Positions 3,394 through 17,734 of a DNA stretch of 64,000 nucleotides are shown here, piece after piece (within the stretch, counting starts at the first letter, position 1; the number at the start of each line of letters is the position of its first letter). Location: the NCBI GenBank assembly GCA_014728125.1, contig WJMD01000014.1, forward strand, positions 2,202 through 66,201, given 5' to 3'. The position numbers and the translations under genes were made by a program. The stretch comes from Candidatus Effluviviaceae Genus V sp. GTDB taxonomy: Bacteria > Joyebacterota > Joyebacteria > Joyebacterales > Joyebacteraceae. The notes below the pieces were generated by a model. The model had not been told where the DNA came from and searched no databases. It worked only from the letters and a program-made list of their open reading frames with translations.

Positions 3394-3660
3394 CCATCGT
3401 TACGCTCATTACCATGAGATGAACTCAGGAAACGCCCCGGGGTGGAGACATCCGGGGGCATTCCATGCCGCACCGACCCGGGACGGCGGCCGGGCCGACG
3501 ACGGCCGGAGCAGGTCCGGAATCCCGGGGTCGGTGTTCGAAAGGAGGCCCTCCGAAGCAGTACGATGTTCGACCGGTGTGGGCCCACAGCGGGCCCGGTG
3601 GCGGACGGGAGAGCCCGTCCGGTAGTTCAGTTCCTCACGTTCCAGCAGGAGGAGTGAAGA

Positions 3661-5028
3661 ATGGCGAGAGCCGCTGCGTGTGATGCCTTCCTTGATGGCG
3701 TCAAGGCGAAGAACCCGGCGCAGGACGAGTTCCACCAGGCGGTGTGCGAGGTCGTGGAGACGATCTGGCCCGTCCTCGACCAGCGCCCCGAGTACCGCAA
3801 GGCCAAGATCATCGAGCGGATCGTCGAGCCCGAGCGCATCATCATGTTCCGCGTTCCGTGGGTCGACGACTCCGGCGATGTCCATGTGAACCGTGGCTAC
3901 CGGATCGAGATGAACAGCGCGATCGGTCCCTACAAGGGCGGCCTCAGGTTCCACCCGAGCGTCAACCTCGGCATCCTCAAGTTCCTGGCCTTCGAGCAGG
4001 TTTTCAAGAACAGCCTGACGACGCTCCCGATGGGCGGCGGCAAGGGCGGTTCGGACTTCGATCCGAAGGGCAAGAGCGACACCGAGGTCATGCGCTTCTG
4101 CCAGGCCTTCATGAGCGAGCTGTTCCGTCACATCGGTCCGAACACCGACGTGCCGGCCGGTGACATCGGCGTCGGCGGCCGCGAGATCGGCTTCCTCTAC
4201 GGCCAGTACCGGAAGCTCACGAACGAGTTCACCGGCGTACTGACCGGCAAGGGCCGGAACTGGGGCGGCAGCCTCATCCGTCCCGAGGCGACGGGCTACG
4301 GCGCCGTCTACTTCGCGCAGGAGATGCTCGGAACCCGCGGCGAGGACCTCAAGGGCAAGACCTGCCTGGTCTCCGGCTCGGGCAACGTTGCGCAGTTCGC
4401 CTGCGAGAAGCTCCTCGACTTCGGCGCGAAGCCGGTCACGTTGTCCGACTCGTCCGGCTACATCTACGACGAGGAGGGCATCGACCGCGACAAGCTCGCG
4501 TTCGTCATGGAGCTCAAGAACGTCAAGCGCGGCCGCATCAAGGAGTACGCGGCGAAGTACTCGAACGCCGTCTATACCGAGCGCGATGCGAGCGCCGATC
4601 ACAACCCGCTCTGGAACCACAAGGCCGACTGCGCCTTCCCGAGCGCGACCCAGAACGAGATCAGCGAGAAGGACGCCCAGAACCTGGTCTCGAACGGCGT
4701 CTACGTCGTCTCCGAGGGCGCGAACATGCCGACGGTCCCCGAGGGCATCGAGATCTTCCTCGACAAGAAGATCCTCTACGGCCCCGGCAAGGCCGCGAAC
4801 GCCGGCGGCGTCGCCGTCTCCGGCCTCGAGATGAGCCAGAACAGCCTGAGGCTCTCCTGGACGCGCGAGGAGGTCGACAACCGCCTGCAGGGCATCATGA
4901 AGTCGATCCACTCGGCCGCCTTCGAGACCTCGAAGGAGTTCGGGGACGAGGGGAACTACGTCATGGGTGCGAACATCGCCGGCTTCATCAAGGTCGCCGA
5001 CTCGATGCTCGACCAGGGCGTCATCTAG
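3661..5028 (+). CDS. gdhA: NADP-specific glutamate dehydrogenase
   Basis: Hallmark GDH motifs are present: GPYKGGLRFHPSVN, LPMGGGKGGSDFDPKGKS, and the NAD(P) fold GSGNVAQFACEKL. AGGAGGAG RBS upstream. Confidence 0.95.
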   Translation: MARAAACDAFLDGVKAKNPAQDEFHQAVCEVVETIWPVLDQRPEYRKAKIIERIVEPERIIMFRVPWVDDSGDVHVNRGYRIEMNSAIGPYKGGLRFHPSVNLGILKFLAFEQVFKNSLTTLPMGGGKGGSDFDPKGKSDTEVMRFCQAFMSELFRHIGPNTDVPAGDIGVGGREIGFLYGQYRKLTNEFTGVLTGKGRNWGGSLIRPEATGYGAVYFAQEMLGTRGEDLKGKTCLVSGSGNVAQFACEKLLDFGAKPVTLSDSSGYIYDEEGIDRDKLAFVMELKNVKRGRIKEYAAKYSNAVYTERDASADHNPLWNHKADCAFPSATQNEISEKDAQNLVSNGVYVVSEGANMPTVPEGIEIFLDKKILYGPGKAANAGGVAVSGLEMSQNSLRLSWTREEVDNRLQGIMKSIHSAAFETSKEFGDEGNYVMGANIAGFIKVADSMLDQGVI

Positions 5029-5077
5029 CCCGTCACACCACGGCGGGTCGCGTCAATGATCCGCCGGACAACGAAGA

Positions 5078-5118
5078 GGGGGTCGGCATCCTCACTGCCG
5101 ACCCCCTTCTTCTTCTCT
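5078..5118. terminator. Bidirectional intrinsic terminator between convergent gdhA and the receiver-kinase gene
   Basis: An 11-bp stem GGGGGTCGGCA / TGCCGACCCCC with loop TCCTCAC is followed by TTCTTCTTCTCT. Confidence 0.6.
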
Positions 5119-5173: not shown

Positions 5174-8167
5174 TCACCCGTCCGTCTTCCGTCCGTCCTT
5201 CCCCGGCTTCAGGATGACCCCGTGCCGGTCGGTGCTGTTGACGAGGATGCGGAGCGGCTCCTCGAGCCTGATGTGCCTCAGGTACCCGGTCTCCTCCTCG
5301 GCCGGCTGATTGTCGAGCCACTCGCTGTCGAGCGACGAGTGTTCGTCCTCCGGGCGCACCGTCAGGTACGCGATCCCGAACGAGGTGATGTTCTGGAAGA
5401 AGTGCGAGCCCTGGGACGGGTCGACCGCGATGTCGGGCATGTCGGTCTCGACGATCGCGCCGACCCCGGCGATCTGGCGCCAGCTGACGGGGATCCCGAG
5501 CCAGCGGTCCGCGCTTCCCCAGCGACCGGGACCGATGAGCAGGTACGTGCGCCCGGCGTCCCGGAGGGACCGGTCGAGCTTCCCGACCTCATCGGCGATC
5601 CTGACGGTCGCGTTCCGATCGAACGTGTCCGGGCGTACGTACACGATGTCGGTTATGCCCTCGGCCGCGCCGTGCCCGAGCGAGCTGCCGGACGAGCAGA
5701 GCACGTCGTCGCTGTCGATGCCGGAGAGGTCGATCTCCTCGGTCGAGGCCTCGAGGACGAGGGGCCTGATCTGGAGGAACGAGAACTCGTGGGGTCCGTC
5801 CTCGTTGAGCATGACCGCGAACTCGATCTCTACGTGGCACGTGAAGCCCGACTTCCCGACCTCCATCAGGAAAGCCAGCGTCTCCGGCAGCGGAAAACGG
5901 TCGCCCGAGAGCAGCCCGGCCATCGTGACGAGCTTGACCCCCGGCCTGCCCGAGCCGTCGTAGATGCGCTCGCTCTCCGGAACGTAGACCGAGCCGACGG
6001 GGAGGAAGGTCCCGTGTTCAGAGGCTGCCTCGACATCGAGAAGCGTCAGGTTCGCCTCCGGCTCGTCGGTCGGCTTCCGGACGGGAGCCTTCTTCGTCAG
6101 GTCGAGGGCATAGAACTGACGCTGCGCGTTGTTCAGGTAGTCGTCCGGCGTCGAGAACTGATAGAGCGCCCGGGGCTTCACCGGGGAGAACCGGATGCAG
6201 CGGCCCCCCTCGACAACGGTCTTCCCCATCCCGAGGGCGACGCAGGCGACGCCGTCCTCCGGCTCGATCCGCTTGATGGGATAGTGGTCGTACGTTCTGG
6301 CGACGCCCGCGGCGTTCGGATAGACGACGTCGCCGTGCCTCCGCCCCGTGATCTGCTGGATGACGACCGCCATCTTCTCCTCCTCGAGGCGGTTCGTCGT
6401 CGACTCGATGTAGCTCTTCGAGTCGGCCGAGTAGGTCGAGGCGTAGACCAGCCTGATCGCGCGGCAGAGTTCGTCGAGCCGCACCTCGAGGTCGTCGTGC
6501 GTGTTCGGGAGCATGTAGGTCTGGTAGATCCCGGCGAACGGCTGGTACGAGGAATCCTCGAAGAGGCTCGACGACCTGACCGCCAGGGGATACCGGACGC
6601 GCGAGAGAAAGGCCCGGAGCTCGCTGATGGTCTCCTCGGGAAGACGGGCGGCGAGGAAGGCCGCGCGGATGGTCACGTCGTCGTCCTCGGAGAGCGCCAG
6701 GGACGTGAGTCCCGACGTCTCCATGAACCGGTCGAAGACGTCGGTCGCCACGACGGCGGTCTGCGGTACCGTGATCCGAACGCCCGGAATCTTGTCCTCG
6801 ATCTCGTAGGCGTCCAGGAGCGAGTTCATGAAAGCCAGCCCTCTGCCCTTGCCTCCCAGCGACCCGCGTCCGATGCGCGTGAACGAAGTCTCTGCCTCGA
6901 AGGTCTCGCTGGAGAACTCCTCGACCAGACCGGCCCGGGCCCGGAATCTGTGTTCCTTGAGCGCTCGGAGGAGGTACTCCCGGAGTTCCTCGGAGGAGTC
7001 GAACTCGTCCGCGGCGATCGCCCGGAGCGCCTTGGCCAGGTCGAACTCGGTCCGGGCCATCAGCCAGGTCGAGAAGTCGTTGCGCCGGGCGTGGTACATG
7101 AGGGACTCGTCGGGGACGGTTCGCACCAGCTCGACGAGTCTCCTGAGGTCGCCGGCTCGCGCGACCTCCGTGCCGTCGGGCGTCCGGAAGATGAAGTCGC
7201 CGAACCCCAGATGGTCCCGCATGAAGGCGCGGACATCGTGCATCAGTGTCGGCGACGTCTTCTGAAGGAACGTGGCCCCGACGCTGAAGGCCTCCTCCGT
7301 GCAGGTCCGGGTCGTCGACTGGATGAGCACCGGCGTCGTCGGGTCGTGCTCCTTGACCATGGACGCGAAGGCTACGCCGGCCATGTCGTCCAGCTCGCCG
7401 TCCTTCGGGAATCGCGCGTCGACGATGACGCCGAGCATGTCCCCGCGGGCCTTCTCGTAGATCGCACGTCCCTCCTCGAAGGTCGTGGCGAGCAGGATCT
7501 TGGGGCGGGCCCGCATCCGCATGAGCTGCTGCATGCGGTTGACGCCCTCCGACATGAGGGCCTGCGTCTGCTCCATGATCTCGCCGTAGAGCATCGGCAG
7601 GTAGGCGGAGTAGAAGCGGACAGAGTCCTCCACGAGCAGGATGCTCATGACGCCGGCCGTCGCCGCGTCGTGCGCGCGGTTCATCCGGTCCTCGGCCCAC
7701 TTGATGATGGCGAGGAAGACCCGGGCGTCGCCGAGCCACACGAAGATGCGGTCGACGCACGAGAGGTCCTCCCGCGCCTTGAGAAGCGAGAGCTCTCTCG
7801 TGTCGTAGGCGAGGAGAACGACCGGGAGGTCGGACGAGTGGCTCTTGATGAGCCTGCCGAACTCGAAGACGTCCATGTCGCCGACGCGCGGCATCGTGAT
7901 GATGAGGTCGGGGTCGATCTCCTGTACCCGCTCGATGGCCTCGCGCGCGGTCGACACGCGGAAGATCGTCGGGGCGGAGCTCAGGTTCAGCTCCTGATAC
8001 TCGGTGAAGAGCATCTCGCCGAGGTTGCCGTCCTCCTGGAACGTGAACGAGTCGTACAGGCTCGACACCAGGAGAATGCGGCGCACGCGCCCCGGCATGA
8101 GATCGGAGAACGGCACGCGCTTACGCTCGATCGCCCCCGCGATCTCCTCGAGTGGTCTGAATCCCAC
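5174..8167 (-). CDS. Multidomain phosphotransferase: pseudo-receiver + receiver (REC) + PEP-synthase/PPDK-type ATP-grasp nucleotide-binding domain + C-terminal PEP-utilising swivelling phosphohistidine domain (PEP synthase / rifampin-phosphotransferase-like, lacks the PEP/pyruvate TIM barrel)
   Basis: REC1 (RILLVSSLYDS...DLIITMPRV) lacks the acidic pocket and the acceptor Asp. REC2 (ILLVEDS...GVIVDARFPKDGELDD...PVLIQSTT...FLQKT) is canonical. PPDK_N-type motif GRGSLGGKGRGLAFMNSL is present. The C-terminal segment GAIVETDMPDIAVDPSQGSHFFQN resembles the PEP-utilizer phospho-His segment. Start chosen is GTG 8167 (GGGGG 4 nt upstream); the alternative is ATG 8098. The ORF-track Met at 8326 would overlap the upstream gene by 150 bp. 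Confidence 0.65.
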   Translation of the reverse strand: MGFRPLEEIAGAIERKRVPFSDLMPGRVRRILLVSSLYDSFTFQEDGNLGEMLFTEYQELNLSSAPTIFRVSTAREAIERVQEIDPDLIITMPRVGDMDVFEFGRLIKSHSSDLPVVLLAYDTRELSLLKAREDLSCVDRIFVWLGDARVFLAIIKWAEDRMNRAHDAATAGVMSILLVEDSVRFYSAYLPMLYGEIMEQTQALMSEGVNRMQQLMRMRARPKILLATTFEEGRAIYEKARGDMLGVIVDARFPKDGELDDMAGVAFASMVKEHDPTTPVLIQSTTRTCTEEAFSVGATFLQKTSPTLMHDVRAFMRDHLGFGDFIFRTPDGTEVARAGDLRRLVELVRTVPDESLMYHARRNDFSTWLMARTEFDLAKALRAIAADEFDSSEELREYLLRALKEHRFRARAGLVEEFSSETFEAETSFTRIGRGSLGGKGRGLAFMNSLLDAYEIEDKIPGVRITVPQTAVVATDVFDRFMETSGLTSLALSEDDDVTIRAAFLAARLPEETISELRAFLSRVRYPLAVRSSSLFEDSSYQPFAGIYQTYMLPNTHDDLEVRLDELCRAIRLVYASTYSADSKSYIESTTNRLEEEKMAVVIQQITGRRHGDVVYPNAAGVARTYDHYPIKRIEPEDGVACVALGMGKTVVEGGRCIRFSPVKPRALYQFSTPDDYLNNAQRQFYALDLTKKAPVRKPTDEPEANLTLLDVEAASEHGTFLPVGSVYVPESERIYDGSGRPGVKLVTMAGLLSGDRFPLPETLAFLMEVGKSGFTCHVEIEFAVMLNEDGPHEFSFLQIRPLVLEASTEEIDLSGIDSDDVLCSSGSSLGHGAAEGITDIVYVRPDTFDRNATVRIADEVGKLDRSLRDAGRTYLLIGPGRWGSADRWLGIPVSWRQIAGVGAIVETDMPDIAVDPSQGSHFFQNITSFGIAYLTVRPEDEHSSLDSEWLDNQPAEEETGYLRHIRLEEPLRILVNSTDRHGVILKPGKDGRKTDG

Positions 8168-8175
8168 GACGCCCC

Positions 8176-10095
8176 CTAGGCCTTCTCCAGCAGAATGAGG
8201 CCGTTCTTCGGCGACAGCAGGCGGTCGTAGGCCGCCTTGAAGTCGGCGTACCGTTCGGGTGGAACCCGCTTCGAGAGGAACTCGATGCGCTTGGTCCAGA
8301 CGACCGAGCGCTCCTCCCGGTCCCACTCACACGCGAGTTCGAAGACGGCGTCGTCCGTCGCGACCTCGATCGGCTCGGGGATCCGGATCGGCTCGTAGCC
8401 CTCGGGAATCCGGGTCCTGAACTCGTAGATGCTCACGAGCTCGGCCGGAAGCATGAAGGAGAACTCCCGCTCCGCCAGCGACGGCTCGACGGCGACGCGC
8501 GCGAAGGCGAACGGGAACTCCGGGACGCGGAGGATCATCATGTCGCCCTGCGGCACTGCGAAATCGGGCGCGTCGATCGTCTGACGGACCCTGACCGGCT
8601 CGAGCAGGTTCTTGAGATCGGTCATGAAGTGCTCGACGTCGGTGGCTCCGGGACCGATGCTGCCGGTCGCCTCCTCGAAGAACTTCTGGACCTCGCTGTC
8701 GGTCGCGTCCTTGAGGGCGGCCCTGCACCTGCGGTCGAAGAACCCGGACACCTCGGCGTTCGCAACGAGCTCCGCCGCGCCGTCGTCGTCCAGCTCGGCG
8801 ACGATGCTGCGCTCGCTGGCGTTCTCGGACGGACTGAAGGGCGGTATCTCGACGAGCTCGCCGGAACCGTCATCCATGACGACGAGCCCCGTGTTGCCGC
8901 GACCCCAGTAGAGATAGCCGTAGTGCACGTTGTCGAGGAAGGGGTCGAGGAAGCGGTAGCCGTCGCTCGACCTGACAGCGACGAGGATACTGTCGAACTG
9001 CTCCAGCGTCGGCACGTCGTCGACGAATGTCACCGGGCCGTCGTTGACCAGCACCGGCCAGGCGTCGACGCCCGCCGCGCGCAGCATGCTGACCAGCAGC
9101 ACGGCCTTGTCACGGGTGTCGCCGTAGCGGTTCTCCATGACGAGCGACGCGTTGTTCGGCTCGTAGCCGCCGAGGCCGAGATCCAGATAGACGTTCCGGA
9201 CGTTCTCAGCAACCTCGAGGAAAACGTCACGGATGATCCCGTCGGTGTCGGCAGCCCCCTCGGTGATCTCCGCCGCGCGCGCCGCGACGTCACCGTCCGT
9301 CTCGACGTGCTTGTAGAAGACGTCGGCGAAGAAGGCCGACGGTCCCTGCCAGTCCTCGTACGAGGAGTAGACAGCGCGCGGGTAGAGCTCGGCCGTCGGG
9401 GGCATGTTCTCCTCGGGCACGAGCCCGGGCACGTCCCGTACGTGCCATGCCTGATCGTCGAAGTCGGCATCGGCATCCGCGAACCCGGCGTCGCCCTCAA
9501 CGACCGCCGTCGTCAGTGTCACGCCGTCCGGCAGCGTGAAGACGACCTCCTTGTCGAGGATCGGATCCTCTCCCCGGAAGTACTCGATCCCCGAGAAGCT
9601 GCCGTCGGGCGCGGGCTCCATGCGCGTCAGAAGCTGAAGCTCCATCGTCGAGCCCTTTCCGACGACCGGGAACGAGAACACCTTCTGGACGACGTTGGCG
9701 TAGATCGTCGCTCCCTCGAGGAACGCGGGCGTGACGTCGTTGATGGCGTCGGGCTCGATCTCGACCGTCCTGCCCGTCCGCCGGATGGTGACGCCCTTCA
9801 CAAGCTCGAGCTCCTCGCGGTCCGCGTTGTAGTAGAATGACTGGTTCGCGTAGTTCTCGCGGCCCTTGAGGGTCAGGGTCTTCGTCAGGACGTTTCTCCT
9901 TGTCGTGACGGCCCCCTCGGCGTCCACGTCGATCAACTTCTGGATCTTCAGGAACAGGGCCGAGGCGTCCGGGTACTCCTCGGCGTCCGGCGCGTTCTCC
10001 CGAAGCTCGGCCACGTCGACGTCCTGCCACTGGTCGCACCACGCGAGGGGAGCGGCCAGCGCGAGGATCAGAAGCACAGAGGCGAAGCGTCGCAT
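8176..10095 (-). CDS. Secreted DUF3857 + transglutaminase-like superfamily protein, catalytically degenerate paralog (Cys and His replaced)
   Basis: Signal peptide MRRFASVLLILALAAPLAWC. Core segment YGDTRDKAVLLVSMLRAAGVDAWPVLVN aligns to the active paralog's YGICRDKAVLMVAMLEQIGVPAWVTVIN, with Cys changed to Thr. The downstream His is lost (SILVAVRSSDGYRFLDPF versus FEHGIVAIEGENGEYVFIDPT). Its ATG directly abuts the TAG of the upstream gene (TAGATG). Confidence 0.7.
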   Translation of the reverse strand: MRRFASVLLILALAAPLAWCDQWQDVDVAELRENAPDAEEYPDASALFLKIQKLIDVDAEGAVTTRRNVLTKTLTLKGRENYANQSFYYNADREELELVKGVTIRRTGRTVEIEPDAINDVTPAFLEGATIYANVVQKVFSFPVVGKGSTMELQLLTRMEPAPDGSFSGIEYFRGEDPILDKEVVFTLPDGVTLTTAVVEGDAGFADADADFDDQAWHVRDVPGLVPEENMPPTAELYPRAVYSSYEDWQGPSAFFADVFYKHVETDGDVAARAAEITEGAADTDGIIRDVFLEVAENVRNVYLDLGLGGYEPNNASLVMENRYGDTRDKAVLLVSMLRAAGVDAWPVLVNDGPVTFVDDVPTLEQFDSILVAVRSSDGYRFLDPFLDNVHYGYLYWGRGNTGLVVMDDGSGELVEIPPFSPSENASERSIVAELDDDGAAELVANAEVSGFFDRRCRAALKDATDSEVQKFFEEATGSIGPGATDVEHFMTDLKNLLEPVRVRQTIDAPDFAVPQGDMMILRVPEFPFAFARVAVEPSLAEREFSFMLPAELVSIYEFRTRIPEGYEPIRIPEPIEVATDDAVFELACEWDREERSVVWTKRIEFLSKRVPPERYADFKAAYDRLLSPKNGLILLEKA

Positions 10096-12108
10096 CTAGC
10101 CCTCCTCTCTCTTGAGGATGATCTCGCCGCGGATCGACCGGTCCGCCATGCGGGCCGCGCGGCGCAGGTTCTTGTACTCCTCCGGCGATATCTGGAACGA
10201 GTCGACGCCGAACGACTTGGAGTAGCTGACAACACCCTCGCCTCCGGTCTCCGCGGGCGGCGAGTAGCCGTAGTCCAGGTCGAGCGACACGACACCCTGC
10301 TCGAACGTGACCGGGTCCGGCATGCTCTTGACGGTGAGTCCCTCGGGGATCGCGATTTCGGCCTCCTCGTTCAGGCCGATCGTGATGCCGAGGTGAACAG
10401 GGTGCTCCCTCTCGGGGAGCGACGTCAGTCTTCCGACCAGCAGCTGTGACATGAAGTCGAAGGCGCCGGTGGCCGACGGGACACGGAAGAGCACATATGG
10501 ATCGGCGTCGAGCAGATAGTCATCGACGGCGTAGCCGACGGTGATCGTCAGCGGCGTCGAGAGGTCCTCCGGGTCCGACGAGTCGAAGCTCGTCATCGTG
10601 GCGCCCGGATAGAGCGCCTGGACCGACTCCTCCCACATCATCTTCATCTGCTGAGGCGAGGTGGCCCTGGCGATCTGGCGGAGGATCTCCTCGTACATCC
10701 CGTTGCCCGTGACGGTCACCGTTCCGGAGATCGATCCGTCCTCGGAGAGCTCGGCCTTCTCTACGATCATTCCGGAGTTCCTGCTCGGCGGATAGTGCGG
10801 GGCCTTGAGGAGTTCCTCGCCGCCCTCCCTGAGGACCATGACCCAGCGGTCCCCGGGGTAGGTGGCGTAGACCTCGCGGCTGGTCTCCTGCGTCGGGTCG
10901 ATGAAGACGTACTCGCCGTTCTCGCCCTCGATCGCGACGATGCCGTGCTCGAACGACGTGTTCGGGACCTCGGGGTCGGTCTTCTTAGAAACGTTGATCA
11001 CCGTCACCCACGCGGGGACGCCGATCTGCTCGAGCATGGCCACCATGAGAACGGCCTTGTCGCGGCAGATGCCGTACTCCTTCTCGAGGGTGTACGCAGG
11101 CGTGTGCGGCTCGAGGAAGGCCCCGAAGTCCATCCCGATCCCCAGGTAGCGGACGTTCTCGAGAATCCAGTAGTGGATCGCGCGGATCTTCTGCTCCTTC
11201 GTCTCGAGGCCCTCCGTCAGGTCGGCGACCAGCTCGCGGACCTGATCGTCGGCGATGCACTTGTCGTCGTACATCCGCCAGAGTTTGTCGGAGAGCTCCT
11301 CCCACTCGTGGACGGTCGAGACGTTGACGCGCGTGGCGATCTGCGCCATCGGCGCCATACCGATCTCCCGCTCGATCTTCGGAACGTCCCGGGCTGTCCA
11401 TGTGTAGTACGTCCAGTCCCCGCCCTCGCCGCGGTCCGGGTCCTCGACGACAGACCGTTCCTCGAACTCGACCTCGACGTCGCCGACGACGGCGTGCTTC
11501 AGGGGCATGTCCGGCGGACCCTGGATCGTCACGCTCGACTCGAGGATCGGCTCGCTGAACTGGAGGTAGAACGTCTGTGCGAAGGCGTCCTCGATGAGCG
11601 GCTCGTAGTCGTCGTGCGTCAGGAGCTCGATGGCGTCGCCCGGCTCGAGGTTCGGGAAGACGATCGTCTTCTCCCGGAAATCGGTCTCGTAGATGTTCAT
11701 CGCAGAGAGCGAGGGAGGCGTGCCGTCCGTGACCAACTCGTCTCCGACGACGATCTCCGAACCGTCCGGCTTGATGACGCGCGCCATCAGGATCTCGTTG
11801 GTGCCGTAGCGCTGGTGGTAGACGGCCGAGTGGTCGGCGAAGTCGTCGACGCCCTCGTCTGTCAGGACTTTCGTGAGAGAGTGGCTGTACTGCTCGAACG
11901 CGCCCGTCTCGTCGAACTCGACCAGCGTACGGTCGAAGATGACCACCGCGTTCGCGTCCGGGTGCTCCTCGACGCCGCCGGCCTCGCCGATGATCCGCGC
12001 GGCCTCGTCGAGCTCGAGCGGCTCGGGGGCCGCGGCCGTCGGCACGGCGGGTGCCGTTGCGGCGACGAACACACTAAAGAGGAGTATTAGGTGTCTTCCC
12101 GCAGACAT
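10096..12108 (-). CDS. Secreted DUF3857 + transglutaminase-like cysteine-protease superfamily protein (Cys-His-Asp retained)
   Basis: Start is ATG at 12108 with AAGGAG RBS. Signal peptide MSAGRHLILLFSVFVAATAPAVPTAAAPE. Transglutaminase-like core GICRDKAVLMVAML...HGIVAIE...FIDPTQE. The long ORF-track extension to 13233 is a P/R-rich non-coding read-through and was rejected. Confidence 0.7.
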   Translation of the reverse strand: MSAGRHLILLFSVFVAATAPAVPTAAAPEPLELDEAARIIGEAGGVEEHPDANAVVIFDRTLVEFDETGAFEQYSHSLTKVLTDEGVDDFADHSAVYHQRYGTNEILMARVIKPDGSEIVVGDELVTDGTPPSLSAMNIYETDFREKTIVFPNLEPGDAIELLTHDDYEPLIEDAFAQTFYLQFSEPILESSVTIQGPPDMPLKHAVVGDVEVEFEERSVVEDPDRGEGGDWTYYTWTARDVPKIEREIGMAPMAQIATRVNVSTVHEWEELSDKLWRMYDDKCIADDQVRELVADLTEGLETKEQKIRAIHYWILENVRYLGIGMDFGAFLEPHTPAYTLEKEYGICRDKAVLMVAMLEQIGVPAWVTVINVSKKTDPEVPNTSFEHGIVAIEGENGEYVFIDPTQETSREVYATYPGDRWVMVLREGGEELLKAPHYPPSRNSGMIVEKAELSEDGSISGTVTVTGNGMYEEILRQIARATSPQQMKMMWEESVQALYPGATMTSFDSSDPEDLSTPLTITVGYAVDDYLLDADPYVLFRVPSATGAFDFMSQLLVGRLTSLPEREHPVHLGITIGLNEEAEIAIPEGLTVKSMPDPVTFEQGVVSLDLDYGYSPPAETGGEGVVSYSKSFGVDSFQISPEEYKNLRRAARMADRSIRGEIILKREEG

Positions 12109-12324
12109 GCAGGCTCCTTTCGGATTGAGTGGTGCGTCAGTTCCGCTTCTCGTTGTTACATCTGTACTTCGGGAAACGATTATGCATGGAGAAGGGTCGA
12201 AGGGCAAGTGGCTCAGGAGGAGGCGGCCGGGCAGCTTGGTGCGTCCGCCGACCTTGTGGTACCATCCGCAGGGACGCGCGGACCTCAGTCCGGGCGTCCG
12301 ACTCGATGCACAACGGGAGGCACG

Positions 12325-13716
12325 ATGAGAGAACAGAGGGCGTTGAGACCGATGATGCTGCGTCTCGTGTGGCTGACGGCGGCCGTTGTCGTTCTCGGCG
12401 GGTCGGCGGCCGCACAGGAGACCGCCCCGTACATGACGCCGACGGCTCCGCCTGAGAGCGGGTACGGTTACAACGTCCCGCTCCCTCGCTGGCTCGTCGA
12501 GTCGTCCCTGGAGCACCGTCGGGCCTTCATCGAGGGTGTTGCGGGCGAGGCGGTCACGCTCGCCGAGACGGACGAGGAGACGGGGATGGGCCTGGTTCTC
12601 GCGTCGGCCGGGGAGCTGGCGGGGGTGACCGAGCGCATCGAGTCGACGATCGCGCAGATCGGTGAGATCGACTCCGCGTTCGGGATCCGCGGCATCTCCA
12701 GACTGGTGACGGCCGAGGGCGCGGTCCGCGACACGTTGTTCGGCTTCGTCGTGTGGCACGAGTCCGCCGCGGGGGAGAGCCGGAAGATAGCGAGGGAGTT
12801 CGAGGACACCGTCGACCGCCTGCTGGCGCTCGGCCAGGCCGCCGACCGGATCGGCGGCGAGCTCTCGTCGAGCGCGCGCGCCGGCCGCCGCGCGCTGGAC
12901 AAGGGTGAGTACAGCTCGATCGCGGAGTCGGCGGTCACCATCAACCAGGCGACGGCGAACCTGGGAACCGTGGCGAACGAAGTGGTTGCGAAGGCGGACG
13001 AACTCGAGGAGATTGTGTGGGAGATTCGGGAGAGCGGCAGCACCCTTCTGGACGCCGAGTGGGACCAGGTCCTTCTGGCGACGAGCGAGGCCCGGCGGCT
13101 CGCGGCGCGGATAGTCCCGGCCCTCGAGGAGGCTCGGACATCGAGTCTCGCGTTCGGGGGCATGGCGACCGCGCTCCAGGAGATCCTCGGAACGCTGGAT
13201 ATGGTCGAGGACGCGCCTCGGCAGAACGGGCACTACGCCGTCCCGTGGAAGGTATTCCTTCGCGATCAGGAGGTCGTCGGCGATATGGTCCAGGGGATCC
13301 TCGAGATGGAGGGTCTCGATGAGATCGTCACGACCAGGGTGAGCGATCTGGCGAGACGTATCGTGATGGCCGACAGGCTGCTGGTCGAGTACGGCGTCTA
13401 CTACACGGGTAACTATGTCGCCGGCGTCAGGGACGATATCGAGGCGCGCTACAGGGAGGACGCCGGGTACAGCGACAACGACCCGCAGAGCGAACGGCTC
13501 GACGTGCTCGAGGAGGTCGACCGCCGGCTCAGGGAAGATCTGGAGCTTCAGACGGCGCTCTTCGCCGCGACCTCGATGCGGACCGCCTTCGCGTCAGGGC
13601 AGGCCGCCGAGGGCGGGGCGATCGGGTCCGAGAGGACCGCGCTCAGCCACTACAAGAACGCTTGGCTCCACGCGCTCAACGCGGGCGCGATGGTCGACCG
13701 GGCCGCCTCTGACTGA
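12325..13716 (+). CDS. Secreted alpha-helical/coiled-coil protein of unknown function
   Basis: ATG 12325 is preceded by GGGAGG. Signal peptide MREQRALRPMMLRLVWLTAAVVVLGGSAAAQ. The remainder is helical and E/R/A-rich. It is divergent from the transglutaminase-like operon. Confidence 0.5.
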   Translation: MREQRALRPMMLRLVWLTAAVVVLGGSAAAQETAPYMTPTAPPESGYGYNVPLPRWLVESSLEHRRAFIEGVAGEAVTLAETDEETGMGLVLASAGELAGVTERIESTIAQIGEIDSAFGIRGISRLVTAEGAVRDTLFGFVVWHESAAGESRKIAREFEDTVDRLLALGQAADRIGGELSSSARAGRRALDKGEYSSIAESAVTINQATANLGTVANEVVAKADELEEIVWEIRESGSTLLDAEWDQVLLATSEARRLAARIVPALEEARTSSLAFGGMATALQEILGTLDMVEDAPRQNGHYAVPWKVFLRDQEVVGDMVQGILEMEGLDEIVTTRVSDLARRIVMADRLLVEYGVYYTGNYVAGVRDDIEARYREDAGYSDNDPQSERLDVLEEVDRRLREDLELQTALFAATSMRTAFASGQAAEGGAIGSERTALSHYKNAWLHALNAGAMVDRAASD

Positions 13717-13740
13717 AACGCGCGACCATCCAGGGAGGCA

Positions 13741-14439
13741 ATGATCCGGGGCGTCTACTTCGACGCGGGCAACACGCTCATCTTTCCAGACTACGGGATC
13801 TACCGTGACGTGGCCGGCAGGCTCGGCGCTGCGATCGGCGTCGATGATGCCGTCGCGGCCGAGGCGCACGCGCGCTCGGCGTTCGATGAGGCGGTGGCTT
13901 CGTCGTCCGGGCGTGATGTAATGTCCTTCTGGGACATCTACTACACACCGTTCTACAGGCATCTCGGTCTGGCGGAGGAGAGCATCCCGGCCGCCATCGA
14001 GCTCACGCGCGACGCCAACGACGAAGGTCTCGGCATCTGGAAGGTGCCCGTCGAGGGGTACCGCGACACGATCGGGGCGCTGCGCGAGAGGGTCGATGTC
14101 ATCGGCATCGTCTCGAACTCTGACGGTCGTCTCGACGACAGGCTCAGGGGGATCGGCATCCGCGACGACTTCGACTTCGTCATCGACTCGGCGGTCGTCG
14201 GTACGAGCAAGCCCGACGTCGCGATCTTCCGGGCGGCCCTCGACCTGGGCGGGCTGTCGCCCGAGGAGGTGGTCTACGTCGGCGACTACTACGCGGTCGA
14301 CGTGGTCGGCGCGCGGGGCGCCGGCATCCGTCCCGTGCTCTTCGATCCTGTAGGGGCCTACGGTCCGGTGGACTGCGACATCATGACGACGTTCCCCGAG
14401 ATCGTCGGGCTCGTCGACGCCTGGAGGGAGGGCGCGTGA
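13741..14439 (+). CDS. HAD-superfamily hydrolase, subfamily IA
   Basis: Motif I at the N-terminus (VYFDAGNTL). Motif II IGIVSNSDG, then K in TSKPD, and motif IV YVGDYYAVDVVGARGAG. Confidence 0.75.
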   Translation: MIRGVYFDAGNTLIFPDYGIYRDVAGRLGAAIGVDDAVAAEAHARSAFDEAVASSSGRDVMSFWDIYYTPFYRHLGLAEESIPAAIELTRDANDEGLGIWKVPVEGYRDTIGALRERVDVIGIVSNSDGRLDDRLRGIGIRDDFDFVIDSAVVGTSKPDVAIFRAALDLGGLSPEEVVYVGDYYAVDVVGARGAGIRPVLFDPVGAYGPVDCDIMTTFPEIVGLVDAWREGA

Positions 14440-15185
14440 ACGTGCCGGAAGGAACGATGCGCTTCGCTCCATCCTGCCTGGCGGCGGGGCTCATGGGCGT
14501 CGGGCTCGACGAGATCCTGGCCTTGGCCAGTACGCAGACGGGGCTCGGCCTGTCGAGGCCCGTCGTCATCATCATTCAGATCGTCGTGCTCATGTTCGCC
14601 ATCATCGTGCACGAGGTCTCGCACGGGTATGCCGCTGAGCAGCTCGGCGATCCGACGGCCCGGAGAATGGGCCGGCTCACGCTCAATCCCATCCCGCACA
14701 TCGATCCGTTCGGCAGCATCCTCGTGCCCGGCATTCTCTTCCTCACGAGCCGTGTGACGGGCATGCCGCTCATCATCGGATGGGCGAAGCCGGTGCCGGT
14801 CGACATCCGGTACTTCAAGGACCCGCTCCGCGGGTTCGCCATCACCTCGGCGGCGGGCCCCGGGTCCAACTTCCTCCAGGTCATCGTCTACGCGCTCATC
14901 TTCCGCACGGCGGTGCATCTCGGCTGGCCGACGTGGGTCCAGTTCATCGGGATGCTGGGCGCGTGGTTCAACATGATCATCGCGTTCTTCAATCTCATCC
15001 CTGTGCCTCCGCTCGACGGTTCGCGCCTTGTCGCAGCCGTGCTTCCGCCCGACACGGCGGGTCGATACCTTGCCTTCGGGCGCTACGGCATGTTCGTGAT
15101 CATCGCCCTCGTCTTCTTCGGCCTTCTCGATCCCTACTTCTCGGCTATCCGACGGCTTCTGATCCTCGTTCTCGGCCTCTCATAA
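14436..15185 (+). CDS. Site-2 protease family (peptidase M50) membrane zinc metalloprotease
   Basis: HEVSHG (HExxH) sits in a TM helix. The product is multi-pass membrane. The GTG start overlaps the HAD stop (GTGA); GGAGGGAGGG upstream. Confidence 0.75.
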   Translation: MNVPEGTMRFAPSCLAAGLMGVGLDEILALASTQTGLGLSRPVVIIIQIVVLMFAIIVHEVSHGYAAEQLGDPTARRMGRLTLNPIPHIDPFGSILVPGILFLTSRVTGMPLIIGWAKPVPVDIRYFKDPLRGFAITSAAGPGSNFLQVIVYALIFRTAVHLGWPTWVQFIGMLGAWFNMIIAFFNLIPVPPLDGSRLVAAVLPPDTAGRYLAFGRYGMFVIIALVFFGLLDPYFSAIRRLLILVLGLS

Positions 15186-15285
15186 GGCGCGAATCCCGGG
15201 GCCCGTGTCGGCATCCCAAGATGTAGAACACAGAGGTGAGCACAATCGACTCGCGGGCTTCGTCTTGTTTACTGTGCGCGCATCC

Positions 15286-15300
15286 TGGCACGGGGCTCGC
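15286..15300 (+). promoter_or_regulatory. Candidate sigma54-type promoter (TGGCAC-N5-TCGC) upstream of the tusA-like operon
   Basis: TGGCACGGGGCTCGC at 15286-15300 has GG and GC dinucleotides at the correct 10-nt spacing. It lies about 28 nt upstream of the TusA-like start. No enhancer-binding protein is present in the window. Confidence 0.3.
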
Positions 15301-15327
15301 GGGTCTTCTATTTGGGGGAGGTGTTCC

Positions 15328-15573
15328 ATGTCCGAGCGACAGAACCCCGAGATCGCAGACACGCTCGACATGATCGGACAGTTCTGTCCCGAGCCCGTCA
15401 TCCGCACGAACGAGGCCGTCGAGGCGCTCGACCCTGGACAGGTGCTCGAGGTGCTCGCGGACGACCCGTCCTCGAGGTCGGACATCGAGAGCTGGGCCAG
15501 GAGGACGGGCAACGAACTGGTGTCGGTCGATGAGACCGAAGGGACATTCAGGTTCCTCATCCGTCGGAGGTAG
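15328..15573 (+). CDS. tusA: TusA-like sulfurtransferase (SirA/YedF/YeeD family)
   Basis: CPEP (CPxP) active-site motif in MIGQFCPEPVIRTNEAVEAL. The product is about 80 aa. GGGGGAGGTG RBS. Confidence 0.8.
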   Translation: MSERQNPEIADTLDMIGQFCPEPVIRTNEAVEALDPGQVLEVLADDPSSRSDIESWARRTGNELVSVDETEGTFRFLIRRR

Positions 15574-15575
15574 CC

Positions 15576-15944
15576 GTGGCAGACAGGAAGCGGATACTGT
15601 ACGTTCAGACCTCGGGCGTCGACACGCCAGAGAGGACCTACGCGCCTCTCGTCCTCGCTACGACCGCCGCATCGATGGGCATCGACGCGATCGTCTACTT
15701 CCTCGGGAAGGGCGTGACGGTCGTCAAGGCCGGAGAGGCTGAGCGGGTGCAGCTCGGGGGCTTTCCCAGGCTCTCCGACGTGCTCAGGCGGGCGGCCGAT
15801 GCTGGCGTGAAACTCCAGGCGTGCGACCAGAGCACCCAGATGCTCGGACTGTCGCGCGGCGACTACATCGGGCAGTGCGACGTCGTCGGCGCCGCCACAC
15901 TGAACGACCTCATGCTCGAGGCCGATGCCGTCATCAGCTTCTGA
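15576..15944 (+). CDS. DsrE/DsrF/TusD-like sulfur relay protein
   Basis: About 120-aa product with a DsrE-like fold signature and conserved Cys residues (LQACDQS, GQCDV). The GTG start immediately follows the tusA-like stop, with a GGAGG RBS. Confidence 0.6.
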
Positions 15945-15997
15945 CGGACGCGCGACATCTCTTGACGCGTTCTGTTGTCACAGCGAAGGGAGGATCC

Positions 15998-17230
15998 ATG
16001 CCGGAGGTTCCGGCAGCGCGAGGCTATCTGGACTACCAGTCGGGCGCGCCGGTCGACCCGCGCGTCGTCGAGGAGATGCTTCCCTACATGACGGAGCGGT
16101 TCGGAAACCCCGCCGTGCTCCATTCCGACGGCGACCCGGCCCGCGAGGCCGTCGAGACGGCCAGGGCGCGCGTCGCGTCCCTCATCGGCGGTGAGCCAAA
16201 GGAGATCGTCTTCACGTCGGGCGCCACCGAGGCATCCAATCTCGCCTTGAAGGGCGTCGCCCGGAGGATGGCCGACAAGGGCAGGCACATCGTCTCGTCG
16301 GTCATCGAGCACCGCTCGGTCATCACGCCGCTCAAGTATCTCGAGAAGCAGGGATTCGAGGTCACGTATCTCCCGGTCGACTCGGAGGCGACCGTCGATC
16401 CGGCGGCCGTGAAGGAGGCGCTCCGGGACGACACCATCCTCGTTTCCATCATGACGGCGAACGGGGAGGTCGGCACCATTCAGCCGGTCGGCGAGATCGC
16501 CACGCTCGTGAAGGACCGCGGCGTGTTGTTCCACACGGACATCGTCCAGGCCCAGGCCTGGGTCCCGGTCGACGTCTCGACGCTCCCGTTCGATCTCGTG
16601 ACCCTCTCATCGAACGACATCTACGGACCGAAGGGCGTCGGCGCCCTCTACGTCCGCAAGGGGACCCGGCTCGAGGCAGTCCTTCACGGCGGCGGGCAGG
16701 AGCGGGGGCTCCGGTCCGGCACCGAGAACGTCCCGGGTCTGGTCGGCTTCGGGAAGGCGGCCGAGCTCGCGGCCGACGAGATGGCGTCCGACGTCGAGCG
16801 CGTGAGATCGCTTCGCGACCGCCTCTTCGAGGGTATCCTCGGCTCCATCGAGGACGCGGAGGTCAACGGCTCGCGGCAGCGGCGGCTTCCGAACAACGTC
16901 AATATCCGGTTCAAGTACATCGAGGGCGAGAGCCTCATCCTGTCGCTCGACATGGAGGGCATCCGCGCCTCGACCGGGTCGGCCTGCTCCGTCAAGACGC
17001 TCGAGCCGTCGTACGTGCAGATCGCGATGGGGGTGCTCCACGAGGAGGCCCACGGGTCGCTTCAGTTAACGCTCGGCCGGTGGTCGACCGGCGAGGATGT
17101 CGACAGGACGCTTGAAACGCTCCCCGGCATCATCGAGCGGCTGAGGGCGATGTCGGCATGGAAGCCCGGCATGACCTACGATCGCGACGACTTCGGTCAC
17201 GACCACGATGGCGGGTCAGGCGAGGAATAG
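15998..17230 (+). CDS. iscS: Cysteine desulfurase (class V aminotransferase, IscS/NifS family)
   Basis: PLP-lysine region [15 protein letters not shown] and the active-site Cys loop [14 protein letters not shown] are present. GAAGGGAGG RBS before ATG 15998. Confidence 0.9.
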
Positions 17231-17314
17231 CGTTACAGTGCTTGACGGGCGTTCAGACGCCCTGCTAGTCTGCCGGCGTGTGGAGTCGGCGTGGGCCCCT
17301 GCTGGAGGTGTGAG

Positions 17315-17734
17315 ATGGGCGAGTATGCGGAGAAGCCCCAGGTTCCGGAGTCGTCCCCGGCGCCGTCGGGCGGAGACCAGATCGTCAAGGACGTCTCGAG
17401 CCCGCTCTTCGAAGCGAAGGGCTGGATGAAGTTCCTTGGCGTCCTCATGATAATCTACGGCATCATCATGATCTTCACGGTCGTCGGCATCATCGTCTGC
17501 TGGCTTCCCATCTGGCTCGGCGTGCTGTTGTTCCAGTCGGCGAGCGCCGTCGAGGGAGCGCATCAGATGGGGGACAAGCGAGAGCTCCACAAGTCGCTCT
17601 CGAAGGTCAAGACGTACTTCACCATCCAGGGCATCCTGGCGCTCATCGGCATCGTCGTGGCGATCATCTCGATGATCGTCATGGGGACGGCCGGACTCAT
17701 GGGTGCGCTGTCCTCGATGGGGAGCGGGTACTAG
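17315..17734 (+). CDS. Small integral membrane protein (DUF5362-like)
   Basis: Two long hydrophobic helices. GGAGGTG RBS before ATG 17315. A candidate promoter CTTGACG...TAGTCT lies upstream at about 17247-17280. Confidence 0.45.
   Translation: MGEYAEKPQVPESSPAPSGGDQIVKDVSSPLFEAKGWMKFLGVLMIIYGIIMIFTVVGIIVCWLPIWLGVLLFQSASAVEGAHQMGDKRELHKSLSKVKTYFTIQGILALIGIVVAIISMIVMGTAGLMGALSSMGSGY

Follow-up and report, generated by a model that had tools for sequence, protein, structure and literature searches.

A fixed tandem of predicted exported transglutaminase-fold proteins abuts a receiver/ATP-grasp gene in one branch of Eisenbacteria

Organization of the locus

We analyzed a stretch of 64,000 nucleotides (the window) from a contig of Candidatus Eisenbacteria, within a comparison of ~170 related loci. 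Three genes are packed head to tail on its minus strand, two of them encoding transglutaminase-fold paralogues (TG1 and TG2) and the third a receiver/ATP-grasp protein (hereafter, the receiver protein), with a glutamate dehydrogenase (GDH) gene, gdhA, convergent to the latter (Table 1). This packing had been recorded in a preliminary description of the sequence, as had the TAGATG motif in which the TAG of TG1 directly abuts the ATG of TG2, and both were recovered here. The stop codon of TG2 (TAG, 8178-8176) is followed by GGGGG-CGTC-GTG, which places the start of the receiver gene at GTG 8167, after a gap of 8 bp, and translation from this GTG gives 997 amino acids identical to the NCBI protein. 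A purine run resembling a ribosome-binding site overlaps the TG2 stop codon, again in agreement with what had been described.

Table 1. Features of the locus and their positions in the window
Feature	Position	Strand	Description
gdhA, NADP-specific glutamate dehydrogenase	3661-5028	plus	Assigned by Pfam and NCBIfam PRK09414 (752 bits versus a cut-off of 536)
Hairpin	5076-5108	both	Stem of 12-13 bp with 9 G-C pairs and T-rich tails; bidirectional terminator-like site between receiver gene and gdhA
Receiver/ATP-grasp gene	5174-8167	minus	997 aa, GTG start; predicted cytoplasmic; NCBI name 'histidine kinase'
TG2	8176-10095	minus	639 aa; predicted Sec-exported paralogue of TG1 whose active site is degenerate; likely non-catalytic partner
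TG1	10096-12108	minus	670 aa; predicted Sec-exported DUF3857 and transglutaminase-core protein, Cys348-His388-Asp404 intact
Sigma-70-like promoter match	12179-12207	minus	TTGCCC-17-CATAAT; lies within the divergent intergenic region (216 bp), ~70 nt before the TG1 ATG
Divergent gene	12325-13716	plus	463-aa predicted exported protein, no family match

Since the three genes share a strand, are separated by gaps of 0 and 8 bp, and showed no terminator-like site between them in a consensus scan, they are likely to be read as a single transcript in the window. Between positions 3400 and 14000 the two strands gave a single promoter-like match, the sigma-70-like site upstream of TG1; it is a consensus match that may not represent the promoter type of Eisenbacteria. 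At the other end of the three genes, 145 bp lie between the stop codons of the receiver gene and gdhA.

Localization was judged by a hydrophobicity heuristic, not by a dedicated predictor. By this measure signal-peptide features mark the N termini of TG1, TG2 and the product of the divergent gene, in the window as well as in orthologues, whereas the receiver protein shows neither a signal peptide nor a membrane segment, in line with the earlier description of exported TG proteins, a secreted divergent product and a cytoplasmic receiver protein. A lipoprotein reading of TG2, based on its 'LAWC' sequence, was ruled out: Trp at position -1 is unfit for a lipobox, and the orthologues have no Cys there. 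The divergent gene product had no Pfam or NCBIfam match and was not homologous to the unannotated proteins encoded beside the TG pair in other lineages. Its homologues lie divergent to TG1 in three related loci (L001, L002 and L081) and in 19 metagenome loci, and in Eisenbacteria-like loci the gene goes with the TG pair both where the receiver gene occurs and where it is missing.

The TG1-TG2 tandem

TG1 matched the Pfam families DUF3857 (PF12969, E 5e-21) and Transglut_core (E 1e-11), and its AlphaFold model (pLDDT 88.8) found PDB entry 3KD4 as its best structural match (Foldseek E 1e-35, TM 0.80 on target). Across 41 homologues C348 and H388 never vary and conservation of D404 is at least 90%, so that TG1 carries the Cys-His-Asp triad of the transglutaminase-core/papain-like thiol enzymes, as had been claimed for it. 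TG2 is a full-length paralogue (26% identity, E 1e-53) that matched DUF3857 just as clearly (PF12969, E 7e-20), matched Transglut_core at the borderline (23.5 bits versus a cut-off of 23) and matched 3KD4 by phmmer (E 3e-12). Its active site is a different matter. In the window the catalytic Cys is replaced by Thr and the His by Ser, with the Asp kept; an alignment with the TG2 proteins of L081 and L084 showed Cys replaced by Thr or Trp and His by Ser, Arg or Ala, the Asp being retained throughout, and the TG2 of L090 has the same Cys-to-Trp motif. TG2 thus lacks the catalytic triad and is likely a conserved, non-catalytic pseudoenzyme. The preliminary description had presented the two proteins as paralogous (trans)peptidases, of which the paralogy stands; the notion of two active enzymes does not, since TG2 has lost the catalytic Cys and His. 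The triad itself had been claimed for TG1 only.

Of 50 assessable metagenome loci, 34 had the tandem order TG1-TG2, and the gap between the two genes was 0-25 bp in 9/9 Eisenbacteria loci. Across lineages, TG1 proteins scored 350-530 bits against one another (1022 bits for the closely related L084 and L090) and TG2 proteins 284-387 bits (~960 for L084 and L090), with TG1-TG2 comparisons at 140-210 bits; the TG2 proteins of four lineages are accordingly closer to one another than to any TG1. The pair occurred without the receiver gene and followed by M16 peptidase genes in L084/L085 and L090, and likewise without it and followed by prolyl isomerase genes in L089; every other lineage sampled also had the pair but no receiver protein with it. 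As judged from these comparisons, TG1-TG2 is an old, independent unit that comprises a predicted exported enzyme and a predicted catalytically dead paralogue.

We propose that the two proteins would act jointly in an extracytoplasmic setting and would probably form a heteromer, in which TG1 uses its thiol to hydrolyse, deamidate or transamidate proteins or peptides and TG2 serves in binding or regulation. The fixed tandem therefore offers a concrete biochemical hypothesis, namely a heteromer with one catalytic subunit, and shows this exported DUF3857/transglutaminase-fold family to be arranged as an ancient, fixed enzyme-pseudoenzyme tandem. The literature searched contained no description of such a fixed active/dead pairing, no characterized close homologue of TG1 or TG2, and no functional study on DUF3857 or DUF3858.

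The receiver/ATP-grasp protein and glutamate dehydrogenase

The receiver protein consists, in order, of a pseudo-receiver domain, a receiver domain, DUF5752, an ATP-grasp domain (PPDK_N, rifampin-phosphotransferase-like) and a conserved C-terminal domain. Among 104 homologues, the second receiver domain retains E180 in 103 and D181 in 88 (Asn in the rest), while D250, S284 and K303 are invariant; it therefore presents the acidic pocket, phospho-acceptor Asp, Ser/Thr and Lys of a response regulator. The first receiver-like domain does not, having Ala/Ser/Cys-Ser in place of the acidic pair and Met92 at the Asp position. Pfam found neither HisKA nor HATPase_c in the protein, and so the deposited name 'histidine kinase' is, by domain content, a misnomer; no cognate histidine kinase is encoded near the gene.

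The catalytic Lys, Arg, Glu and Asp residues of the ATP-grasp domain are invariant in the homologues, and the domain is closest to those of rifampin phosphotransferase and HpeI, with further matches to the PigC/RedH and PEP-synthase models. In the Pfam scan the protein showed no PEP/pyruvate-binding TIM barrel (PF02896) and no rifampin-binding domain, and all NCBIfam equivalogs scored far below their cut-offs; on this evidence it is neither a PEP synthase nor a PPDK nor a rifampin phosphotransferase. The C-terminal 191 amino acids had no Pfam match even at E 10, PEP-utilizers (PF00391) included, but they contain an invariant G[ST]H922FFQN motif, from which we infer that this region may be a divergent phospho-histidine swivel domain. 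No functional study on DUF5752, on PF19027, on PPDK_N combined with a receiver, or on GDH combined with a pyruvate-binding domain was found in the literature searched.

We surveyed the neighbourhood of the receiver gene at 80 species-level loci from many bacterial phyla and from archaea, drawn from at least 590 matches. The family occurs in Eisenbacteria, Gemmatimonadota, Zixibacteria, Acidobacteriota, Myxococcota, gut and environmental Bacteroidota, and Thermoplasmatota archaea. Among cultured bacteria, Bacteroides cellulosilyticus DSM 14838 (L077) and B. timonensis (L076) carry homologues. A close GdhA homologue (>50% identity) was encoded within 10 kb in 44/80 loci and at a distance of 600 bp or less in 30/80, in all four orientations; a distant Glu/Leu/Phe/Val dehydrogenase lay directly downstream in three more, bringing the totals to 47/80 and 33/80. 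GDH was the only other family widely shared in the flanks of these 80 loci, and the receiver-gene/GDH pair was duplicated in L026 and L029, with two of each in L067. These data demonstrate that the receiver gene has a conserved genomic partner in many bacterial phyla and in archaea, namely the gene for glutamate dehydrogenase; the literature searched gave no mention of this link. The gdh locus BT1970-1973 of Bacteroides thetaiotaomicron, considered as a possible characterized example, was set aside, since a published study gives BT1971 as a catalase.

We take the receiver protein to be a cytoplasmic response regulator with an enzymatic output. Some sensor kinase would phosphorylate Asp250 and thereby switch a phosphotransfer that depends on ATP, perhaps by way of the invariant His922, a role taken from the motif; the target would belong to the glutamate/2-oxoglutarate node and could be GDH itself. 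A possible but doubtful alternative is that the receiver protein acts as a dikinase for small molecules, in the manner of PEP synthase, rifampin phosphotransferase or HpeI, and does not regulate GDH; gdhA would then lie nearby by virtue of a shared metabolite, such as a 2-oxo acid or amino acid, that the receiver protein phosphorylates. The affinities of the ATP-grasp domain and its invariant catalytic residues are consistent with such a role; set against it are the missing TIM barrel and rifampin-binding domain and the lack of a PEP-utilizer His domain recognizable to Pfam, and the one-to-one duplication of receiver gene and GDH fits a protein-specific partnership at least equally well.

A more far-reaching reading, which is rather unlikely as a whole, is that this family of ~1000-amino-acid proteins is a dedicated, two-component-controlled regulator or modifying enzyme of GDH, whose expression has in one Eisenbacteria branch become hard-wired to the exported TG pair. 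If true, the family would act after translation at a previously undescribed point of control, where carbon and nitrogen metabolism meet, and in that one branch would couple the processing of extracellular proteins to the handling of glutamate. Since the receiver-GDH linkage includes cultured Bacteroides, what may be a new layer in the control of GDH and nitrogen is open to experiment.

Adjacency of the two units and comparison with known systems

The three-gene order TG1-TG2-receiver gene was verified directly in nine Eisenbacteria loci (L001-L003, L081, L108, L109, L111, L121 and L127). Nineteen further pairs of TG1 and receiver-protein matches come from contigs of equal length, indirect evidence that the genes lie together. 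Counted from the tandem, the receiver gene follows it in 4 of 24 assessable cases, all four with a TG1 at least 50% identical to that of the window; this corresponds to 4/7 loci inside the close Eisenbacteria clade and 0/17 outside it. Counted from the receiver gene, the tandem was found at only three of the 80 species-level loci, all of them Eisenbacteria, and was absent from the other 77. The adjacency is confined to an Eisenbacteria sub-branch in which the receiver protein is at least ~64% identical, and receiver genes devoid of the tandem occur in a more distant member of Eisenbacteria (L086) and in L087 and L088, with receiver proteins 58-62% identical. Even within the clade the arrangement varies: in L101 the interval from TG2 to the methyltransferase gene contains neither the receiver gene nor gdhA, L112 is without the receiver gene and keeps gdhA beside the tandem, and in L132, likewise devoid of the receiver gene, a distant Glu/Leu/Phe/Val dehydrogenase gene adjoins the tandem.

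The preliminary description had proposed that the TG pair is functionally coupled to the receiver-kinase and had named neighbourhood conservation across genomes as the check. The proposal was not borne out, as the adjacency is not conserved beyond close genomes and the conserved neighbour of the receiver gene is GDH.

The junction between TG2 and the receiver gene also differs among the loci that share the three-gene order. In seven of the nine relatives a spacer of 68-118 bp holds a strong GC hairpin after the TG2 stop codon (12-14 bp, without U-tracts), which, lacking U-tracts, may stabilize the RNA instead of terminating transcription. In the window and in L001 the spacer has shrunk to a few bases. 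By this comparison the loss of the spacer in the window appears to be a local, derived arrangement, and the shrunken spacer suggests that transcripts starting at the TG promoter probably run on into the receiver gene here; an 8-bp junction makes co-transcription likely.

We consider it probable that the 6.9-kb stretch consists of two evolutionarily independent units, the TG pair and the receiver/ATP-grasp gene, which abut in one Eisenbacteria branch and do not form a conserved functional module. Several observations run counter to this interpretation: the three-gene order is common within the sub-clade, the 8-bp junction makes co-expression, and hence some physiological link, possible, and the retention of a dehydrogenase beside the tandem in L112 and L132 could hint at a common theme of TG proteins and glutamate metabolism. 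The role proposed for His922 is a reading of its motif, with no PEP-utilizer domain found there by Pfam.

Such a common theme would be a loose metabolic link, in which TG1/TG2, the receiver protein and GdhA serve nitrogen or peptide scavenging, the exported enzyme processing or deamidating proteins and peptides outside the cell to yield glutamate and ammonium for a receiver-controlled GDH. We regard it as quite improbable. The transglutaminase fold includes protein-glutaminases, the M16 peptidases encoded after the tandem in other lineages fit protein or peptide processing, and the dehydrogenases of L112 and L132 adjoin the tandem even without the receiver gene. However, the 17 assessable TG pairs from beyond the Eisenbacteria clade all lacked a nearby GDH, L101 has the tandem with neither GDH nor the receiver gene, inherited synteny explains the neighbourhood within the clade, and the substrate role assigned to the TG proteins is conjectural.

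A genuine Eisenbacteria module, in which envelope or peptide remodelling by the exported TG proteins is coupled to a cytoplasmic receiver/ATP-grasp output, is less probable still: the gene order kept in nine inspected loci and 19 indirect pairs, the tight, terminator-free junction and the single promoter-like site speak for it, but the whole 20-kb region (M50, HAD, divergent gene, TG1, TG2, receiver gene, gdhA, methyltransferase) is syntenic in the clade, so that adjacency there is not independent evidence of function, and against it stand the receiver gene missing from 3/7 in-clade loci and 17/17 out-of-clade pairs, the TG genes missing from 77/80 receiver loci, the hairpin spacer of 7/9 relatives, and the differing compartments with no transmembrane partner encoded in the unit. 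The three-gene finding is, on the two-unit interpretation, a lineage-specific juxtaposition and not a new signalling module, which makes the arrangement itself of modest importance.

Both units resemble known proteins in part. BDI_1141 of Parabacteroides distasonis (PDB 3KD4, a 'putative protease') has the same three-part DUF3857/transglutaminase-like/DUF3858 fold as TG1 and, like the TG proteins, is exported; it shares with TG2 the lack of a catalytic Cys at the aligned position (YGTPLE versus YGDTRD) and differs from TG1, which has the full Cys-His-Asp triad; sequence identity is only ~15%. The core motif GVCRD of 3ISR, a transglutaminase-like putative cysteine protease from Cytophaga hutchinsonii, aligns with GICRD of TG1, yet 3ISR is of a single-domain type of ~290 amino acids without DUF3857.

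The receiver protein shares its PPDK_N ATP-grasp domain with rifampin phosphotransferase and the PEP synthase/PPDK dikinases (PDB 5HV6 and 5HV1), but unlike these it has two N-terminal receiver domains and DUF5752 and no TIM barrel or rifampin-binding domain. With PleD-type response regulators (Foldseek E ~1e-9 to 1e-10) it has in common tandem receivers ahead of an enzymatic output, one of them with the acid pocket, Asp, Ser/Thr and Lys and the other without; unlike in PleD, the pseudo-receiver comes first, reversing the order, and the output is an ATP-grasp domain instead of GGDEF.

Layout of the three-gene run and anatomy of the receiver protein

TG1, TG2 and the receiver gene had been described as minus-strand genes packed head to tail, and both ORF calls and coordinates bore this out, as did the first junction, where the TG1 stop and the TG2 start are contiguous (TAGATG). 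The TG2 stop (TAG) is followed by GGGGG-CGTC-GTG, giving an 8-bp spacer before the receiver gene. GC content of the window is ~66%; a single sigma-70-like site was found upstream of TG1, and no terminator-like site was found between TG1 and the end of the receiver gene. Classical signal-peptide features, assessed heuristically, were seen in TG1, TG2 and the divergent gene product and were absent from the receiver protein, in agreement with the proposed contrast between exported TG proteins and a cytoplasmic third protein, and with a secreted divergent product. The receiver protein has a 100% identical NCBI counterpart of equal length (997 aa), which comes from a metagenome-assembled genome of Candidatus Eisenbacteria, and TG1 is likewise 100% identical to a deposited Candidatus Eisenbacteria protein.

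Features around the TG pair and the receiver gene (window positions)
Feature	Position	Strand	Remarks
gdhA	3661-5028	+	NADP-specific glutamate dehydrogenase
Bidirectional hairpin	5076-5108		T-rich tails; 3' of receiver gene
Receiver gene	5174-8167	-	997 aa; GTG start 8167 backed by homology; Pfam Response_reg, DUF5752, PPDK_N
TG2	8176-10095	-	ORF; Pfam DUF3857, borderline Transglut_core
TG1	10096-12108	-	ORF; Pfam DUF3857, Transglut_core
Sigma-70-like site	12207-12179		upstream of TG1
Divergent gene	12325-13716	+	signal-peptide features in product
Genes after divergent gene	13741-17230	+	HAD hydrolase, M50 peptidase, TusA-like, DsrE-like, class-V aminotransferase (cysteine desulfurase-like)

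Residue conservation in the receiver protein was assessed over 104 homologues. In its first receiver-like domain the acidic pair is missing and Met occupies the phospho-acceptor position; the second retains E180, D181, D250, S284 and K303; and virtually no variation is seen at the ATP-grasp residues K440, R442, R531, E537, D538, E597, E780 and E782. Two invariant motifs, GxGRWG[ST]xD and G[ST]-H922-FFQN, lie in the C-terminal domain, and His922 may act as a phospho-carrier. Pfam found neither HisKA nor HATPase_c, no PEP/pyruvate TIM barrel and no detectable swivel domain, which excludes both a histidine kinase and a PEP synthase; the name 'histidine kinase', which NCBI gives to it and to many homologues, is not supported, since HisKA and HATPase_c are missing. 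JGI labels its homologues 'CheY-like' or 'NarL/FixJ response regulator'. In a profile comparison, the DUF5752 segment (residues ~337-404) weakly resembled PDB 4CSO ('ORFY protein, transcription factor'; E 0.009). No study of this unit's function was found in the literature searched.

Pairing of the receiver gene with glutamate dehydrogenase

One genome per GTDB species was scanned with the receiver protein, and the best 80 of at least 590 relatives were kept; these came from Eisenbacteria, Acidobacteriota, Myxococcota, Gemmatimonadota, Krumholzibacteriia, Zixibacteria, Aegiribacteria, Bacteroidota (including cultured Bacteroides), Spirochaetia and Thermoplasmatota archaea. In at least 44 of these best 80, a homologue sharing more than 50% identity with the window's GdhA lies within 10 kb of the receiver gene, and in at least 30 it lies within 600 bp, in all four orientations; both counts are lower bounds because flanks are truncated at many loci. 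By our own estimate, chance alone would put a single-copy gene inside that 10-kb range, on one side or the other, in roughly 0.5% of cases. When flanking ORFs were clustered all against all, GDH was the sole widely shared family, antisense artefacts aside. Two loci (L026, L029) each contain two convergent receiver-GDH units, and a third (L067) reads GDH, receiver gene, receiver gene, GDH. The receiver/ATP-grasp family is thus linked to GDH in archaea as well as in many phyla of bacteria, and no description of this link was found in the literature searched.

In the window, gdhA (NADP-specific; PRK09414, 752 bits) is convergent to the receiver gene at a distance of 145 bp, and the two share the hairpin between them. 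At three loci from Krumholzibacteriia and a related uncultured bacterium (L017, L018, L020), a distant Glu/Leu/Phe/Val dehydrogenase, 31-32% identical to GdhA, stands directly downstream in its place, and so what is linked may be the dehydrogenase superfamily rather than a single orthologue.

Two tandem full-length receiver/ATP-grasp paralogues occur in 23 of the best 80 loci (L006, L008, L026, L029, L033, L035-L037, L043, L046-L049, L052, L053, L058-L060, L062, L067, L070, L073, L075). At L081 (2.2-Mb ENA contig, 12985-17570), the receiver gene and gdhA are split into several frames among intact neighbours, probably through indel error in a long-read assembly, though pseudogenisation may also account for it. 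Judged by eye, putative 2-oxoacid:ferredoxin oxidoreductase alpha/beta ORFs (clusters 10 and 11) recur near the receiver gene in ~10 Bacteroidales loci among L033-L075, which may be plain Bacteroidales synteny or a further 2-oxoglutarate link.

Two units abutting in one Eisenbacteria branch

The preliminary description had further proposed that the exported TG enzymes are functionally coupled to the receiver protein, a claim that the comparison across genomes did not support. TG1 and TG2 lie upstream of the receiver gene in only 3 of the best 80 of at least 590 relatives (L001-L003, all Eisenbacteria), and the receiver gene occurs without the TG pair in a more distant Eisenbacteria locus (L086, 61% identity) and in L087 and L088 (58-62%). 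A metagenome scan seeded by a TG1 alignment yielded 80 loci; a TG2-type paralogue directly follows TG1 in 34 of 50 assessable loci, and of the 24 pairs that could be assessed only 4 have the receiver gene after TG2. These four cases are confined to the clade whose TG1 shares at least 50% identity with that of the window (4/7, against 0/17 elsewhere). Elsewhere in this clade TG2 is followed by gdhA (L112), by a distant dehydrogenase (L132), or, with receiver gene and gdhA both missing, by the methyltransferase gene found next to gdhA in the window (L101).

Within the clade some 20 kb are syntenic (M50 peptidase, HAD hydrolase, divergent gene, TG1, TG2, receiver gene, gdhA, methyltransferase), and conserved adjacency of TG2 and the receiver gene is therefore expected from descent alone. 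That 19 TG1 matches sit on contigs of the same length as receiver-protein matches suggests, indirectly, that the arrangement is common there. The genes after the divergent gene keep their order in L081, so synteny reaches well past the three-gene stretch.

At nine Eisenbacteria loci that share the three-gene order, TG1 and TG2 are always 0-25 bp apart; the gap before the receiver gene is 68-118 bp in seven (L002, L003, L081, L108, L109/L111, L121, L127) and 2-8 bp in the other two, L001 and the window. All seven longer spacers carry a perfect 12-14 bp GC hairpin directly 3' of the TG2 stop (z-scores against shuffles -1.3 to -4.1), constant in position and type and varying in sequence; it is absent from L001 and the window. 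These hairpins, which have no U-tracts, may serve either transcription termination or RNA stabilisation. The window's tight coupling is therefore the exception, and since the usual hairpin spacer is lost, the TG pair and the receiver gene are probably co-transcribed here.

Taken together, the stretch holds two independent units that abut in one Eisenbacteria branch: an ancient exported tandem, apparently a TG enzyme with a pseudoenzyme partner plus a clade-specific divergent neighbour, and a predicted response regulator with ATP-grasp output, paired with GDH. A nitrogen- or peptide-scavenging theme might, as a less likely reading, loosely join both.

TG1 and its paralogue TG2

No study of the TG pair's function was found in the literature searched. 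In lineages other than Eisenbacteria, genes for M16 peptidases (L084/L085, L090, L091) or prolyl isomerases (L089) come after the pair. Two M16 zinc peptidase genes follow it in L084/L085 (13084-16654) and L091 (12038-15606), and one called M16 gene in L090 (5894-8002), after 1.6 kb without a called gene. Anti-sigma (zf-HC2/HEAT) family matches lie near the pair in L084/L085 and L090, as does an ECF-type sigma factor gene in L084/L085; such M16/anti-sigma surroundings hint at a setting of extracytoplasmic protein processing.

The two TG proteins are paralogous over their full length (26% identity, E 1e-53). Across four lineages, with the closely related L084/L090 pair left out, TG1-TG1 scores were 350-530 bits and TG2-TG2 scores 284-387 bits, against 140-210 bits for TG1-TG2; each thus groups with its own kind, and the duplication is therefore old. 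The Cys-His-Asp triad claimed for TG1 held up: in an alignment of 41 sequences (identity down to 19%), Cys348 and His388 are invariant and Asp404 is at least 90% conserved. In the window's TG2, Cys is replaced by Thr and His by Ser; in counterparts from distant lineages Thr or Trp stands in for the Cys, and in the two aligned ones Arg or Ala for the His. TG2 would thus be a dead copy kept since the duplication.

The AlphaFold model of TG1 (pLDDT 88.8, pTM 0.84) matched the 'putative protease' BDI_1141 (PDB 3KD4; E 1e-35, TM 0.80 on the target). For TG2, a sequence match to 3KD4 was obtained (E 3e-12), and the catalytic Cys is missing from 3KD4 too.
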